DNA from: Acidobacteriota bacterium
GTDB taxonomy: Bacteria > Acidobacteriota > UBA6911 > RPQK01 > JAJDTT01
DNA length: 64,000 nucleotides
Reading direction: 5' to 3'
Assembly (NCBI GenBank): GCA_965217775.1
Contig: CBDCJH010000002.1
Location: 768,001 to 832,000, forward strand
The stretch's first letter is position 1, and each line of letters begins with the position of its first letter. Both the position numbers and the translations under genes were made by a program. The notes under the pieces are model-generated. The model had not been told where the DNA came from. It was given only the letters and a program-made list of their open reading frames with translations, and searched no databases. This document shows positions 20,019-37,608 of this stretch, one piece after another.

Positions 20019-20174
20019 TACGGAGGCGTCGAGGAGTCCGGATCGTCGTCGTTACTGTTCGCCCGGTCGGCTAGGCTGCTACCGATCCAGGTCCTGTTTC
20101 ATATTGGTGTGAGGATGGTTCTCGCAATGGGCTCGTCACACTAGTATCCGATGGGATACAGGGGGGAGATAATC

Positions 20175-20480
20175 ATGGCAAAGATAAGTACCCGTCCATG
20201 GGATGCGGCCGAACATCTTGAGACCGACGAGGATATGGCTGCCTACCTGGAGGCGGCGCTCGAAGACGGTGACCCTGCGCTGATATTTGCTGTTTTGGGG
20301 GACATCGCACGCGCCAAGGGTATGACTGGAATCGCACGGAATGCGGGTCTGGGACGGGAGAGTCTTTACAAGGCGTTGTCTCCCGGCGGCAATCCGAGAT
20401 TCGCCACCGTGCTCAAAGTCGTACGGACGCTGGGACTCCAGCTTCACGCGGCGCCGGCTCGAGGTTCAACCAATCAGTAA
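20175..20480 (+). CDS. Addiction-module antidote HTH (HI1420-like), no adjacent toxin gene
   Basis: WDAAEHL..AYL, GDIARAKGMT..A..GLGRESLYKALS..GNPRF. Confidence 0.85.
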   Translation: MAKISTRPWDAAEHLETDEDMAAYLEAALEDGDPALIFAVLGDIARAKGMTGIARNAGLGRESLYKALSPGGNPRFATVLKVVRTLGLQLHAAPARGSTNQ

Positions 20481-21098: not shown

Positions 21099-21506
21099 CT
21101 ATGGAACGACCTCGAACCCCATCTGCTGGAAGTGATGGTCCAACGTCAAGACCCTGCGAATTCGCAGTTCCCGCATGACAACGAAGCTGCAGCAGTCGGT
21201 GAAGGAGAAGTCCTTGTCACGGTAGCGGAAGAAAAGCGATCGTGCGCGTTCTCTTCGCGCTTCACCGACCGACTCCATGCGAAGTCGGGTCGACCCTTCG
21301 ATTTGCCGCCACCAGGCTTCAGCGGCGTCGAGACCGAGGCGAAACCGGATCGTGGTCAGGGTCTCGTCGACCACGTAGTCGGTCGTCACCAGGATGCCGC
21401 CCTCCGAAAGCCATCGATCCCGAGTCTGCCGTACGAACGGGCCCGAGGTATCGGCGCTGTCGGCGGCGGAAACCCATGCGGCCGTATCCACGTAGATGGG
21501 CTTCAT
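21099..21506 (-). CDS. VapC/PIN toxin
   Basis: YVDT, DYVVDET, FSFTDC.SF, TLDHHF. Confidence 0.88.
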   Translation of the reverse strand: MKPIYVDTAAWVSAADSADTSGPFVRQTRDRWLSEGGILVTTDYVVDETLTTIRFRLGLDAAEAWWRQIEGSTRLRMESVGEARRERARSLFFRYRDKDFSFTDCCSFVVMRELRIRRVLTLDHHFQQMGFEVVP

Positions 21507-21748
21507 CGATAAAGCAGCTCGTCGTGCCTCGCGGCGGCGTCCCCCGAGTCGGAAGAGCCGACGGGTGCGGCCCGGAACAGCGAATCCGATTCCAAGGGCA
21601 CGCTTTCGACAGAGGGAGCGCCTACCGGGACGATGTCGAAGGCCGGGCGGCTCCGGTACAGGACGGTGAACTTTTCACCATGTCTCACCTTCTCGACGAT
21701 GTCCTTCAATCTCTCTCGGAGCTGTTTGGCGTTGAGAATCTCATGCAT
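21503..21748 (-). CDS. Phd/YefM-type antitoxin
   Basis: NAKQLRERLKDIVEKVRHGE.FTV; overlaps the PIN gene start. Confidence 0.8.
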   Translation of the reverse strand: MHEILNAKQLRERLKDIVEKVRHGEKFTVLYRSRPAFDIVPVGAPSVESVPLESDSLFRAAPVGSSDSGDAAARHDELLYR

Positions 21749-21789
21749 CGGAGTGCTCTCGTCACAAAGTTCAACTTAAGTTAATCTTT

Positions 21790-21900
21790 GGGGCTTATAT
21801 ACCTAAGTGCCCTTGGCATACAGTTCTGGCACCACGCTTTCCCCAACGAGATACGTTCCGGTGCCCAGGGCAAGAACCCCAGCCCTGAGAATGTTCAGGG
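21790..21900 (-). ncRNA. Predicted omega-RNA scaffold (3' part) overlapping the tnpB 3' end
   Basis: Hairpins CAGGGC/GCCCTG, GGCACC/GGTGCC and TGTATGCC/GGTATATA at the position typical of TnpB omega-RNAs; 5' boundary uncertain. Confidence 0.6.
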
Positions 21901-22978
21901 CGGCATTGTGGTCCCTGTCCATTCCAAGTCCGCAGGCCCTGCACCGGAAGGTTTCGCTCCGTCCTGGATCGTGGCGGGCGCCGCACCGGTGGCAGTCCTG
22001 CGAGGTATATGCGGGATTCACTTCTACGAACTCCCGACCGGCCCATTCTGCCTTGTACTGGAGTTGATTCCGCAGAAGCCCCCATGATTGCGTCAGTATT
22101 TCTCGATTCAGCCCCTTCTTCTTCGAGCCCTTCGTTACCATCCCTTGGATGTTCAGCTTCTCCACAGCGATCAGACCGTGCTCACGAATGATCCTGCTGG
22201 AGAGACGATGGCAGGCATTACGGTTTCGGACCGATTCCCGGTGACGGAGCCGAGATAGCTGTACGATCCGCTTCCGTCTGGTCTTGGAAATCTTCTTGCA
22301 CCTGGAGACCTTTCTCTGCTGCTTTCGGATCTCCCCCCAGTCCCGTCTCTTCCGTTCGATCCTCTCACCCGTGGACAGCACCGCTCGCTTGCGGACGCCC
22401 AGGTCGATCCCCACCGAAGACTCGCATTTCGGTAGCGGCGGCTTCTCCACCTCGTAGGTCAGGTCCACATACACCCGGTTCGGCTTGCGGACAATCCGCA
22501 ACGCTTTCAACGGGCATCCGTCCGGCAACGGCCGGGACGGAAATACCCGGATCGTCGGAAAGCCCTTGGGGCGGATGGCGTATCCGCGCGCCCGCTTCTT
22601 CACCACGGTCGCCTTGGGGTCGACGATGTCGATGGTCTCCATCCTCGCCAGGGGCCGGAACCGAGGATACCCCGGCTTCTCCCCCGCCTTGCAGCGACGG
22701 AAGAACGCCTGGAAGGCCCGGTCCAACCGCATCAACATCCCACGCTCCGCCTTGACCGCCACCGACCCGAGCCCCTCCGGATCGTCCTTCCTCTGGGAGG
22801 TCAACCCCTTCATCTGATCGTACAGGGTCACGCCGCGTTGCTCGGATTCCCAGGCCGTCCTGCGTTCCTCCAGTGCAGCGTTGTACAGCCGATTCAGGAT
22901 GGACCTCACCCCGTCCAACCGCCGGATTCCACCCTTGGACAGCTTGGCTCTGCACTGGATAGTTGCGTGGCCTTTCAT
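21803..22978 (-). CDS. tnpB: TnpB RNA-guided endonuclease, catalytic triad intact
   Basis: LYNAAL, GYPRF, RuvC-I GIDLG, RuvC-II AVEKL, YTSQDCHRCG..CRACG Zn ribbon, RuvC-III DRDHNAALNI. Confidence 0.93.
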   Translation of the reverse strand: MKGHATIQCRAKLSKGGIRRLDGVRSILNRLYNAALEERRTAWESEQRGVTLYDQMKGLTSQRKDDPEGLGSVAVKAERGMLMRLDRAFQAFFRRCKAGEKPGYPRFRPLARMETIDIVDPKATVVKKRARGYAIRPKGFPTIRVFPSRPLPDGCPLKALRIVRKPNRVYVDLTYEVEKPPLPKCESSVGIDLGVRKRAVLSTGERIERKRRDWGEIRKQQRKVSRCKKISKTRRKRIVQLSRLRHRESVRNRNACHRLSSRIIREHGLIAVEKLNIQGMVTKGSKKKGLNREILTQSWGLLRNQLQYKAEWAGREFVEVNPAYTSQDCHRCGARHDPGRSETFRCRACGLGMDRDHNAALNILRAGVLALGTGTYLVGESVVPELYAKGT

Positions 22979-23112
22979 GGTCGGAATTGTAAACCATCAG
23001 CCTGAATTCTCGGCACTTACGTATATAATCTCTTAATCTTTCCTGAGAATTGAGGCAACTGGGCCGCGCCGCATGGCGCTTGCATGAACCGTCCAACCAG
23101 TGAGGATTTGTT

Positions 23113-23939
23113 ATGAGGAAGTGGGGCACGCCGGACGATCCCCGCCGGGCGCGGGTCGAGGAAATGCTTGAATCGTCCCGGGTCGTCGAAATTTTCAAGG
23201 GGGTTCACGACTTCAACATCGACGAACCGGCGGAGGACTTCCCGATCTTGAGCATGGCCTTCGGGTCATGGACCTCGACCGTTCGATTCCAGGTCCCGCA
23301 GTTCGGCCGTTGGCTGGCCGCCACCGGTTCACAACGTGCCTACGCTCACCACCGCAGCATCATGCAGAATTACACGTGGCAGCGCCGGCAACGTCAGCCT
23401 GGGCACCCGGGCAATGGCTGTTCAAGATGCCATTTCAACTCATGGAGTTGGAGACCTGGGCGAGACCTATCCCGACGCCCTTTTCATCCGGACGCACCGT
23501 AGCCCCAGCCAATTCATGGGTTCCTGGAACAGCTTCGTGGAAAAGGCGCGTTCGCTCTCCGTCCATCCACAGCCCCGAGAAAGCCTCGGCGCCGAACTGC
23601 TGGACTTCATGAGCCGCATGATGGATCGAGCCGTGCATTTCGGGGAAACCCATCCCGAACTGGAGCACCGCATGGATGGACGTGAACTACATCGATCTGG
23701 TGGAAGACCCGCTGACCGTGGTGCACGGTATCTATGAGCGGTTCAATTGGCCGCTCAAACGGTCGGTCCTGAACACCATGGACGACTGGCTGTTCCAGCA
23801 GGCGGCGCGCCGCCATAAGGAGCCGAAACATCGCTACGATCTGGCGGACTACGGCCTGACACCCGAGGACGTCAACACTGCGTTTGGGGGTTATCGAGAT
23901 TTTCTGACCCGCGCCGGAATTCGCGAATCCGGTTCGTGA
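23113..23939 (+). pseudogene. Sulfotransferase family fragment with several frameshifts
   Basis: WLFKMPF, YPDALFIRTHRSP, DLVEDP..V..IY, HRYDLADYGL spread over three frames. Confidence 0.75.
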
Positions 23940-34739: not shown

Positions 34740-35196
34740 CTGATGAGGGAAGATGTGGACAAAATCCGACGCGAACTGACTGGGTTCTACCGTTGCGGTG
34801 CCAATGACGGGCCAATAGAATCTTTCAGATATGATGAGAGGTGGTTGTATCCGGCGCGACTCCTCCTAGTTGATCGGTCGAAGGAACCGTAAGTGCGGTC
34901 TCGTGAGCCTCAGCCGCCAGAGCAGGACGTCAAGACCATGGATCACTTCTACCGACAGGTGAGGCTTGGCGCGCACAACCGACCGGTTTCTGTTGATAGC
35001 CACCGGCAGGTGAGCCGGATTGTTAGCAGGACAAAGCCATGGACTTCTCGACGCTGCTCGAAAACAAGGTGCTTCTGGCCGCCATTTCAGGCCTATCGGG
35101 CGTTGTCTTAACGCTGATTACCCAGCGGATTCTAGGGAAGCGCGGACTGTTCACCTACTTTGGGGGATTATATACGAAAGTGCCGAAACCTGAGCA

Positions 35197-35379
35197 TTAA
35201 CGCCGGTTCCGTGGCCGGTCTATCCATCTGATATTCACGGGCTGGACCAATGCACGGGCCAGCTCCTCGAAGTCTGCTTCCACGCGCATATCCGGTTCCA
35301 GTTCGGCCTTGGTCGGTTGGTAGGAATCCTTGACCAGTTCGATGGTGGGATGTTGGGGATTGTGTCTGGGTTTCTTCAT
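35197..35379 (-). CDS. Small IS1595 passenger protein
   Basis: 60-aa ORF translationally coupled to the upstream passenger and ending near the IR. Confidence 0.5.
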   Translation of the reverse strand: MKKPRHNPQHPTIELVKDSYQPTKAELEPDMRVEADFEELARALVQPVNIRWIDRPRNRR

Positions 35380-35881
35380 GCGGCCCTCGGCATCCTAGGT
35401 TGTTTCCCCTCAAAGTAGTCTTCCGCCGTGTAGATTTGAATCTTGGGCAGGTCCATGAAGCGTCCGGCGTTGACGGCGGCATTTCTCATGCCGTTGGTCA
35501 CTCGGTCTCGAAAGCAGGTGAAGATGCCGAGATCAGCTCCGGCCTGTCGACGTGCGCCGTTGAAGGCTTGGACGTGTCCGGGATTGGTAGAGCCGCCTTT
35601 GACCTGAGAAACGATGTCAATGAACCGGCCCTTGCGGATCGGGAGCCGTCCCACGCCGTCAATTCCGCCATCCCGTCTCTGGATTCGGTTCGGCTCCGTA
35701 CCCTCCACCAGAGCAGCAGCCCACCTCTCAAACCGGAATTTATCGATGCTGGCAAGCTCCTGAGCGTGTGTGATGGTATGGGGAAGGCCAATGTCTTGGG
35801 TGTGTTCCCAACGGATTCATCCGGGACATCCTCCCGCATGACTTCAAGGTGGTCTCCAAAGCTCAGTCGATTTTCGTTCAA
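35376..35881 (-). pseudogene. Internally deleted DNA methyltransferase/Mrr-like passenger
   Basis: N-terminus NRLSFGDHLEVMREDVPDESV (MTase start) and, in another frame, RDGGIDG...VSQVKGG (Mrr-like motif). Confidence 0.6.
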
Positions 35882-36828
35882 CCCACCAAATCCTTGTAAC
35901 GCAGCCGCTTTCCCACCATCCGGTCAGCGACCAGGGCCATTTGATCCAACGTGTCCATGCGCCTTAGGTTGTGACGTGCGGCAAACTCTCCAACGTATCG
36001 GTCGGTGTGCTGTTCCGAGAAGTGGTGAAAGGTTCCGTGGTAACTCCGCTTCAACATCGACCAGAACGATTCGGCTCCGTTGGTGTGGCAGTTGCCTTTG
36101 ACGTACTCCTGAAGAGAATGCTTGACCGTCTCGTGATTGACAAGCCGGCCGTAAGAGGTTGAATCGTCGGTGTAGATCTTGGCATCTTCTCCCACGTGCT
36201 CCAAGACGAAACGGGAGAGGGTTTCAGACTTGGTGTCAGGGACGACTCGGGCCGACACTTGGTTGGAGGGGCGATCTTTGACGGCAGCCACGGCCGTCTT
36301 TCCAACGGCTCCACGTCCCTCCAGTTTGGCGCGTTTGGCCTTCGGCATATTCTTCCGCTTTCCGCCGAGATACGCCTCGTCAGCCTCGACCGGGCCGGAG
36401 AACAGGGCCATTCCAGTCAGGTTCAGACCTTTCCGTATCCGGTGAGCAAGGTGCCAAGCCGTCTTCTGTGTTACGTCCAGGTCACGATGCAGCTTCATGG
36501 AGGAAACGCTCTTGAGGCTGGTAGTAAGGAGGTAGGTCGCAAGCAACCAAGTCTGATAGCCGAGTTTGGAGGACTGCATAACCGTCCCGACCCGGACGCT
36601 GAACCGCTTGCCGCAATCGCGGCAACGATACGGCATGGAAGGATGCTTGGCTCCGGTCTGGACGTTGGTGGAGCCGCAATGGACGCAACAGACTTCCTCC
36701 GGCCACCGCCGCTTTATGAACCATTCCTCAGCGGCTTTATCGTCGGGAAATCTCTTGAAGAATCCGCGCAGTGAAAGTCCCTCTCGGAACGCCTTTCCGG
36801 GTGCCTTGTTCCGTGTCTCGTAACTCAT
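35878..36828 (-). CDS. IS1595 family DDE transposase
   Basis: Zn ribbon CVHCGS..YRCRDC, VEADEAYLGG, IYTDD, HTNGAESFWS. Confidence 0.93.
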   Translation of the reverse strand: MSYETRNKAPGKAFREGLSLRGFFKRFPDDKAAEEWFIKRRWPEEVCCVHCGSTNVQTGAKHPSMPYRCRDCGKRFSVRVGTVMQSSKLGYQTWLLATYLLTTSLKSVSSMKLHRDLDVTQKTAWHLAHRIRKGLNLTGMALFSGPVEADEAYLGGKRKNMPKAKRAKLEGRGAVGKTAVAAVKDRPSNQVSARVVPDTKSETLSRFVLEHVGEDAKIYTDDSTSYGRLVNHETVKHSLQEYVKGNCHTNGAESFWSMLKRSYHGTFHHFSEQHTDRYVGEFAARHNLRRMDTLDQMALVADRMVGKRLRYKDLVG

Positions 36829-37608
36829 TGCATCCTCCTGACTTACAAGACATATTCTATAGGAAAGTACCGGGATTGTCAACCCCTACGGGAAACCTTT
36901 TCGGCACTTTCGTATATAATCCCCCTACTTTGTGTGGCACAACCGTGTCGGCGTATCAGCCGACGACGCGGTATTCGGGACCGTAGGCGTCACTTGGAAC
37001 AGCAACGTAGTGCCAAACCTGTACTCATCGACAGTTGAGCTGAGAAACGAAAGTCTCGCTGACTACCAGAACGTCGTCGTGCGCGTGTTCTCGAACGACA
37101 CGCGCCTCTTGTCAGAACGCGCGGACTTGATGGGAACGACCCGCACCCTGGAATGGAGCGAGGAGTTCTCCCGTCGGTTGGCAGTCCAGCCAGGAACCCA
37201 GCCGACGGCGGGCCAGATGGTTCTATACGGGCGCCAGCGCGAATACGCCGTGCCGACGATGAATCGTGGTCAGATCGTGCGTCTGACGTTTCTGAATGCG
37301 CCTGACGGTGAGGCTCAGCCCACGATTTGGCTCGACATCGTTCATCCCGGTGTGAAGACCCGGTTCCGAGTGCCACATCAGCAGTTTCTTGGGACGCCGC
37401 AGCCCATCGCCGCGCTCATCGGCGCGGCTCTGGGTGTTCCCTTCCTGCTCGTAGTCGTCGCCTTGACCGACGTGGCCTGGGCCGCTGGGGTTCTGTGCTT
37501 ACTCTATGGGGTCTGCGTCGTCTTCCCGGGCGCGTACTTTATCAAGGCGTGGCGGGGGATCAGAGAGTTGGTCGGTGGATGATAGGGGGCACCGGCGCCG
37601 AAGGGCGC

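Follow-up and report, generated by a model that had tools for sequence, protein, structure and literature searches.

The right end of a transposase-less, IS1595-borne tnpB cassette was found to carry a conserved fold by which it would double as the scaffold of an omega-RNA. The cassette lies in the window, i.e. the whole 64,000-nt stretch of Acidobacteriota DNA that was analysed, and the full explanation that we propose for it, including mobilisation in trans, a flank-derived guide and homing, is in our judgement probable. The IS1595-family DDE transposase from a 1762-bp IS would move the cassette in trans and leave an 8-bp duplication. Its terminal ∼100 nt, which fall mostly within the tnpB frame, would form the scaffold, consisting of stem 1, the long and bulged stem 2, a GAAC linker that is conserved, and stem 3; a pseudoknot would link the stem-1 loop with the last six bases of the repeat. 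Because the pseudoknot and one arm of stem 3 fall in the right inverted repeat (IRR), its outermost bases would serve both as terminal inverted repeat (TIR) and as RNA scaffold. Transcription leaving the element would then supply a guide composed of the 8-bp duplication and the flank beyond it, and the ribonucleoprotein (RNP) could cleave copies of this site that are still empty, so that recombination would more readily restore the element there. The benefit would be confined to insertions that have a short TAM on the tnpB-upstream side (G at −1, frequently GG, then A), and this would explain why almost all surviving copies bear that motif.

A transposase-less tnpB cassette with IS1595-type ends

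A repeat search returned a 17-nt inverted repeat bracketing tnpB, and comparison of copies extended the full ends to 22 nt. The ends and duplications of the window copy were set from other copies in the same genome (G000), giving the following layout.

21790..23033, minus strand: whole non-autonomous TnpB cassette, 1244 bp
23034..23041, minus strand: left 8-bp target duplication, AAAGATTA
23012..23033, minus strand: left inverted repeat (IRL), 22 nt, starting with AGAG here and with GGGG in other copies
21803..22978, minus strand: intact tnpB ORF, 391 aa (Pfam OrfB_IS605 7.9e-18, Cas12f1-like_TNB 4e-26)
21790..21811, minus strand: right inverted repeat (IRR), 22 nt, holding the tnpB stop codon and the predicted 3′ strands of stem 3 and of the pseudoknot
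21782..21789, minus strand: right 8-bp target duplication, AAAGATTA, the first 8 nt of the predicted guide
23042..23043, minus strand: candidate TAM position, GG directly upstream of the left duplication

The intact tnpB is the only gene in the cassette, and neither a transposase gene nor a tnpA was found within the 1244 bp, which leave no space for the former. In the sister genome G007 the site is empty, with a single AAAGATTA between the same flanks (flank 97% identical), so that the empty site rebuilt in an earlier note made from the letters alone, ...TCTCAGG followed by AAAGATTAACTTAAG..., exists there as such; the 9-bp duplication given in that note is to be corrected to 8 bp (AAAGATTA), the length also found in the other copies. 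The insertion sits in a near-palindrome (window 21765-21790, 15-nt arms, 87% complementary) that is intact in the empty site of G007.

The window's genome holds 18 matches to the cassette, 12 of them at 93–100% identity. Since its left end reads AGAG instead of GGGG, the window copy may be no longer able to move. Among 41 related genomes, the cassette TnpB protein was detected in the window's genus only, namely in G000 and five of the eight other genomes there, and the genus contains five cassette subfamilies (74–86% protein identity), each with its own end pair and 8-bp duplications. A left repeat was found for 26 of the 32 distinct right ends, the six without a detected left partner being L059, L051, L046, L058, L057 and L061. 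Among the 26 cassettes with both ends, the duplication was perfect in 20, carried one mismatch in two and at least two mismatches in four, i.e. 22 of 26 had an 8-bp duplication with 0–1 mismatch. The full-length cassettes L033 / L006 (G000:C2:1186780-1188023), L052 and L054 were flanked by unrelated 8-mers with 5–6 mismatches, as expected from recombination between copies or an adjacent rearrangement.

A cognate IS1595 transposase is encoded in the same window

Searching the window with the 22-nt end pattern gave three matches versus 0.00 expected, two of which bracket an autonomous element 13 kb from the cassette.

35163..36924, minus strand: 1762-bp autonomous element of the IS1595 family; inverted repeats of 22 bp, perfect; 8-bp duplication CTACTTTG
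35878..36882, minus strand: IS1595 transposase gene, 334 aa (Pfam DDE_Tnp_IS1595 1.8e-38)

The ends of this IS share 21 of 22 bases with the cassette at the left and 19 of 22 at the right, and its 334-aa transposase also matched Zn_ribbon_IS1595 at 24.5 bits, slightly below the cutoff of 25.4. The IS1595-type ends claimed for the cassette in the earlier note were therefore upheld, both by the shared end pattern and by the cognate transposase gene in the window. The cassette itself shows the family traits of ends starting with GG and an 8-bp duplication, and encodes no DDE_Tnp_IS1595 transposase with an N-terminal Zn ribbon; as the transposase is encoded by the separate 1762-bp element, the cassette is a non-autonomous derivative rather than an IS1595 element proper, and from sequence comparison we infer that it would be mobilised in trans by the IS1595 transposase. 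Full-length copies of the window's cassette type were found only in G000 and G006, both of which contain the IS at 98–100% identity. G002 carries five IS copies at 98% and no cassette, so the IS is independent of the cassette.

Both the 1762-bp length and the perfect 22-bp repeats are constant in the other IS copies at 98–100% identity (e.g. seven in G006 and five in G002). At locus L219 (G002:C1:4121912-4127284) two 1762-bp copies lie head to tail with 9 bp between them, and their duplications, AATTAAAA and ATTAAAAA, overlap, so that one copy seemingly inserted right beside the other. The autonomous IS carries ∼700 bp of additional DNA 3′ of the transposase gene (window 35163-35878), in which a 110-aa ORF gave weak Mrr_cat / NA-iREase1 restriction-endonuclease-like matches (1.4e-07), possibly a passenger or a remnant. 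Five near-identical cassettes of another subfamily reside in G005 (loci L047, L048, L050 and L056), in which a search with the window transposase returned only broken or distant IS1595 genes and no intact close one; these cassettes may be stranded or mobilised by a more distant transposase.

The cassette retains an intact TnpB

The 391-aa product scored 65.3 bits against OrfB_IS605 and 91.4 bits against Cas12f1-like_TNB, both above the cutoffs, and thus has the RuvC-type core and Zn ribbon of a TnpB; among solved structures, those of ISDra2 TnpB come closest (E 3.7e-31, residues 31-375). Alignment to ISDra2 TnpB placed D192, E273 and D356 in the motifs GxDxG, AxE and DRDxNAAxNI, and the three residues, which we take to be the catalytic acidic triad of TnpB, were invariant in alignment A2 (eight sequences, down to 45% identity). 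With the triad invariant, a nuclease-dead regulatory TnpB was ruled out. An ORF of at least 385 aa has been retained in 25 of 32 cassette copies, and dN/dS was 0.14 between subfamilies while pN/pS was 0.30 among copies of the window's family; by these sequence measures tnpB is maintained under purifying selection. The gene spans almost the whole element, its start lying only 55 nt inside the left end and its TAG stop codon (21805-21803) within the right repeat (21811-21790), just as had been noted from the sequence at first.

The 3′ end of tnpB is predicted to encode an omega-RNA scaffold

The elements of the predicted RNA were assigned as follows, the percentages and counts being those of alignment A1 described below.

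21866..21887, minus strand: predicted omega-RNA stem 1 with a 10-nt loop; 100% paired, 3 of 6 pairs changed on both sides
21880-21875, minus strand: stem-1 loop bases forming the predicted 5′ half of the pseudoknot
21828..21865, minus strand: predicted omega-RNA stem 2, long and bulged, in three segments; outer segment 99.4% and inner segment 99.5% paired
21796..21822, minus strand: predicted omega-RNA stem 3, its 3′ arm inside the IRR; 91.3% paired, both-sided changes at 3 of 8 pairs, also part of the MFE fold
21790..21795, minus strand: last 6 nt of the cassette, predicted 3′ half of the pseudoknot; 95.5% paired, 2 of 6 pairs changed on both sides

Read on the minus strand, stem 1 is CAGGGC-TGGGGTTCTT-GCCCTG (21887-21866), stem 2 is GGCACC...GGTGCC (21865-21828) followed by AGAAC (21827-21823), and stem 3 is TGTATGCC...GGTATATA (21822-21815 / 21803-21796) followed by AGCCCC (21795-21790). 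RNAfold on 21887-21796 returned exactly three stems at −40 kcal/mol (z −2.81), 4 of 200 shuffles folding as well, so the three stems proposed in the earlier note were both read at their positions and recovered by folding; its placing of the 3′ arm of stem 3 (21803-21796) within the TIR likewise agrees with the mapped right repeat.

For the covariation analysis, 60 matches to the last 230 nt were reduced to 32 distinct 3′ ends, and a re-run with four more G000 loci again gave 32 distinct ends, L041, L097, L098 and L099 being left out with ends that could not be placed. Dropping identical 150-nt rows yielded alignment A1 of 26 sequences, on which a structure of five stems plus the pseudoknot was counted, comprising 39 pairs and 1001 pair cells. 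Paired cells made up 95.6% of the 1001 versus a shuffled mean of 86.8%, with none of 500 shuffles reaching the observed value; changes on both sides occurred at 15 of the 39 pairs versus a shuffled mean of 9.0 (0 of 500) and 2–5 in six slid controls; and the covariation score was 0.276 versus 0.122 in shuffles, where the relatedness of the A1 sequences makes the shuffle control overstate the support and leaves the slid controls and the distinct pair types as the safer measures. In stem 2, 3 of 6 outer and 3 of 8 inner pairs had changed on both sides. RNAalifold called stems 1 and 2 independently; on A1 it called neither stem 3 nor the pseudoknot, pseudoknots being beyond its notation. An extra upstream stem placed by eye (helix 1, columns 26-30 with 43-47) was weak, with 86.2% paired and a different pairing preferred by RNAalifold.

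Several pairs were mostly G-U (e.g. 25 of 25 at columns 122/156), and the many G-U pairs fit an RNA of the tnpB strand. Synonymous divergence was 0.35 in the last 45 tnpB codons versus 0.59 in the rest of the gene, and these slowed synonymous sites fit an RNA on the tnpB strand as well. A covariance model of the nested stems matched 36 of 85 distant TnpB loci at E ≤ 0.001 and 48 at E ≤ 1, which indicates that the scaffold type is older than its association with these ends; Rfam gave no match in 21600-23200 at E ≤ 1. The comparisons support a structured, conserved RNA of omega-RNA type as a product of the tnpB 3′ end. Contigs of four metatranscriptome libraries (two studies) ran past the right end into the flanks of other copies; such contigs do not tell strand or RNA ends and may derive from carried-over DNA. 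The depth of RNA-library contigs was higher in the element than in its flanks, maybe reflecting only collapsed copies.

The stem-1 loop follows the element terminus

In the window's family, GGGGTT in the stem-1 loop can pair with the terminal AGCCCC in six pairs, one of them G-U. A hand comparison of loop and terminus across homologs, a check that had been suggested along with the pseudoknot itself, found the loop complementary to the terminus in seven element groups with six different terminal sequences: GGGAATT:AATTCCC in the L049 group; GGGGTT:AATCCC, with a one-base shift, in the L047 group; GGGAAT:ATTCCC in L130 (43% protein identity); AGACGAT:ATCGTCT in L132 and L134 (45% identity), the repeat of which is wholly different; and GGGACTT:AAGTCCC in L133 and GGGGC:GCCCC in L046, for which no left repeat was found and the ends were placed by similarity alone. 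In the window, L049, L047, L130 and L132/L134 groups, the ends were set by the elements' own left and right repeats, independently of the pairing, and by our own estimate the chance of an exact 6- or 7-mer complement in a 150–220-nt stretch is a few percent or less. The pairing between the stem-1 loop and the terminal AGCCCC is thereby supported. The both-sided pseudoknot changes in A1 stem from one lineage (L049 and L018), so the comparison of distant relatives is the stronger support; the formal count was limited to A1, as the covariance model aligns the terminus by sequence and would bias a wider one.

Three positions distinguish the cassette's right repeat from that of IS1595, and at two of them the change creates an omega-RNA pair: at position 5 a U-U becomes a U-G in the pseudoknot, and at position 14 a C-C becomes a C-G at the base of stem 3, a change that also completes the TAG stop codon. 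With two of three differences forming pairs in the predicted RNA, the term 'co-adapted', which the earlier note had used of the omega-RNA and the TIR, is a reasonable one. The direction of change, from the IS1595 repeat toward omega-RNA pairing, is what we infer from this comparison.

No close relatives of the TnpB were found in metagenomes, where the best were 43–46% identical and most 33–38%. An exact-seed search for inverted ends in 73 metagenome TnpB loci gave seven matches, three of them convincing (L130, L132 and L134); the other four were 11-nt matches only and were discarded as chance. On SAR202-type contigs, L132, L134 and L060 contain TnpB relatives at 45% identity in elements of ∼1.38 kb, whose inverted repeat is quite unlike that of the cassette and whose duplications measure 6–7 bp (TAAGGT, TGTGTAT); the pseudoknot partner there lies in an internal loop, not a hairpin loop.

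Asymmetric flanks suggest a short TAM

Were the RNA to extend beyond 21790 in the manner of ISDra2, its guide would be AAAGATTA plus flank.

21770..21789, minus strand: predicted guide (duplication plus flank), placed by position, its length assumed from ISDra2

The flanks were compared over 22 insertions with a 0–1-mismatch duplication, drawn from five genomes of one genus; all flanks differ, and the set therefore represents separate insertion events. At the tnpB-upstream junction, G stood at −1 in 21 of 22 and at −2 in 15 of 22, A at +1 in all 22, and A or T at +2 in 22 and at +3 in 21. The step G|A was present at 21 of the 22 tnpB-upstream junctions versus 5 of the 22 opposite junctions read in reverse complement (Fisher 1.1e-6), and versus 10 of 40 junction views of autonomous IS1595 elements (Fisher 8.1e-8), the latter control consisting of 20 insertions with intact duplications from 22 instances in loci L100-L129 and L218-L232. 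This asymmetry suggests, from the aligned flanks, a short TAM ending in G directly upstream of the left duplication. The relaxed TAM anticipated in the earlier note thus stands insofar as the motif is short, but the flanks are constrained, G at −1 and A at +1 hardly varying across the 22 insertions.

In the autonomous IS1595, −1 is mostly G or C (31 of 40 views) and +1 mostly A or T (35 of 40), so that part of the motif is a preference of the transposase, and tnpB starts only 55 nt inside the left end. The G|A bias could hence be unrelated to TnpB and stem from the transposase's choice of target or orientation, or from selection on such a flank-plus-left-end promoter. We regard this as unlikely: G|A occurs in just a quarter of the autonomous views, only 9 of the 20 autonomous insertions have it on at least one side, the opposite cassette junction has it in just 5 of 22, and the bias is retained in subfamilies with near-identical ends (all 4 insertions of the L047 group and both of the L049 group), which means that asymmetric ends are not its explanation. 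Miniature derivatives with the same ends and no tnpB, sought as a further control for target choice, were not found in G000.

Another reading accepts the element and the scaffold and shifts the register, with the 8-bp duplication on the TAM or scaffold side and the guide starting after the duplication, as in Fanzor1. The constrained positions do lie on both sides of the junction (G at −1; A at +1, then A or T at +2 and +3) and possibly form one motif, G-A-W-W, and there is a precedent in Fanzor1, whose 5′ duplication has been counted toward the TAM and whose 3′ duplication falls within the scaffold (PMC13565253). Against this, Fanzor1 is described in the passages of the same review drawn on here as being without a 3′ pseudoknot, whereas that of the cassette RNA ends exactly at the last element base; in ISDra2, the closest solved relative, the guide begins one base after the pseudoknot (PMC10097598); and autonomous IS1595 insertions likewise show A or T at +2, +3 and +7, which may just be target choice by the transposase. 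The shifted register, too, is thus given a low probability. Far less credible is it that the hairpins are not RNA and reflect protein-coding constraint, DNA structures or transposase binding sites: both constraints do exist, as the sequence is coding and ends in the 22-nt TIR, but compensatory double changes at 15 of 39 pairs are unexpected under coding or protein-binding constraint, synonymous sites are slowed specifically in this part of tnpB, the many G-U pairs would be C-A mismatches on the opposite strand, and the same architecture scores in the 36 of 85 distant TnpB loci, while convincing inverted ends were found in only 3 of the 73 metagenome loci scanned.

Returning to the preferred register, in which the guide starts with the duplication, a minimal TAM (one G, often GG) would lie directly 5′ of the guide, and homing or retention by TnpB, not the transposase, would decide which insertions persist and in which orientation. 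We offer this part tentatively, as plausible though not on balance probable. If true, the flanks would hold a genomic footprint of OMEGA-driven selection on a DDE transposon, and the protein would be a compact nuclease whose G-type TAM is unusually short.

Relation to known TnpB systems

TnpB in DDE-type shells is already known. Altae-Tran et al. (2023, PNAS; PMC10691335) described six DDE-associated branches (DDE-1 to DDE-6) with TnpB within inverted terminal repeats and its 3′ end <250 bp from the element end, as well as solo TnpBs whose ends are nearly identical to those of transposase-bearing elements, suggesting mobilisation in trans. The cassette resembles these in having inverted terminal repeats around tnpB and in sharing its ends with a transposase-bearing IS. 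IS630 is named in the main text of that paper and IS1595 has 0 occurrences there, although its supplements may list an IS1595-type branch; a 2026 review (PMC13565253) gives ISL2, IS630 and IS1031 as DDE carriers of TnpB. Unlike the present analysis, the passages of PMC10691335 that were covered contain no covariation between pseudoknot and terminus and no flank (TAM) asymmetry, and literature on TnpB plus IS1595 yielded no paper on the cassette arrangement, judging by titles and abstracts. The fit between repeat and scaffold is unusually well documented here, since the locus adds a cognate transposase in the window, a natural empty site, covariation of the scaffold, a loop that tracks the terminus and an asymmetry of the flanks.

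In ISDra2 (IS200/IS605; PDB 8bf8, 8exa, 8h1j), the pseudoknot joins scaffold positions −5 to −3 to −103 to −105, and a 16-nt guide directly follows the scaffold (PMC10097598, Nakagawa et al. 2023). The cassette is alike in that its RNA overlaps the tnpB 3′ end and reaches the element end, its pseudoknot is formed by the last scaffold nucleotides, and its guide is predicted to come from the flank. According to PMC13565253, IS200/IS605 elements are without inverted repeats or duplication, use a Y1 TnpA and insert beside a fixed 4–5-nt motif that is the TAM. The cassette has both repeats and duplication and no Y1 or serine TnpA, which sets it apart from IS200/IS605 and IS607; its shell, in contrast to IS200/IS605, is of the DDE type, makes an 8-bp duplication and has a variable target rich in A and T. 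With such a shell and target, the guide would begin with the duplicated bases, and the transposase alone could not set the TAM. Fanzor1 is similar as a TnpB-family nuclease in duplication-making DDE transposons whose RNA runs into the terminal inverted repeat, and differs in that, as described in the passages drawn on from PMC13565253, the 3′ duplication is scaffold and the 3′ pseudoknot is missing, while the cassette keeps the prokaryotic pseudoknot. The features listed for the IS1595 family, i.e. 8-bp duplications, GG-starting ends and a transposase with Zn ribbon and DDE_Tnp_IS1595 domain (PMC8101967), are all seen in the partner IS, and the cassette carries tnpB in place of the transposase.

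The review PMC13565253 notes that TnpB is stably associated with the scarlessly excising IS605 and IS607 elements and argues that inflexible target recognition may be why it is rare among the DDE transposons of prokaryotes. An active-looking, multi-copy family with an identified partner transposase, a natural empty site, an RNA model backed by covariation and an orientation-specific flank motif resembling a very short TAM makes the role of TnpB for a DDE transposon directly testable, and the 391-aa protein is a nuclease candidate for editing work, its TAM possibly being minimal.

Toxin–antitoxin genes around the insertion

About 33 nt downstream of the cassette insertion, on the same strand as tnpB, lie a phd/yefM-like antitoxin gene (81 aa) and then a PIN-domain toxin gene (135 aa; together window 21099-21748), and read-through from tnpB could drive or disturb this operon. 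In addition, a 109-aa ORF at window 20151-20480 matched Pfam dnstrm_HI1420, a probable addiction-module antidote (4.8e-32); with it nearby, the neighbourhood of the cassette is rich in toxin–antitoxin modules.
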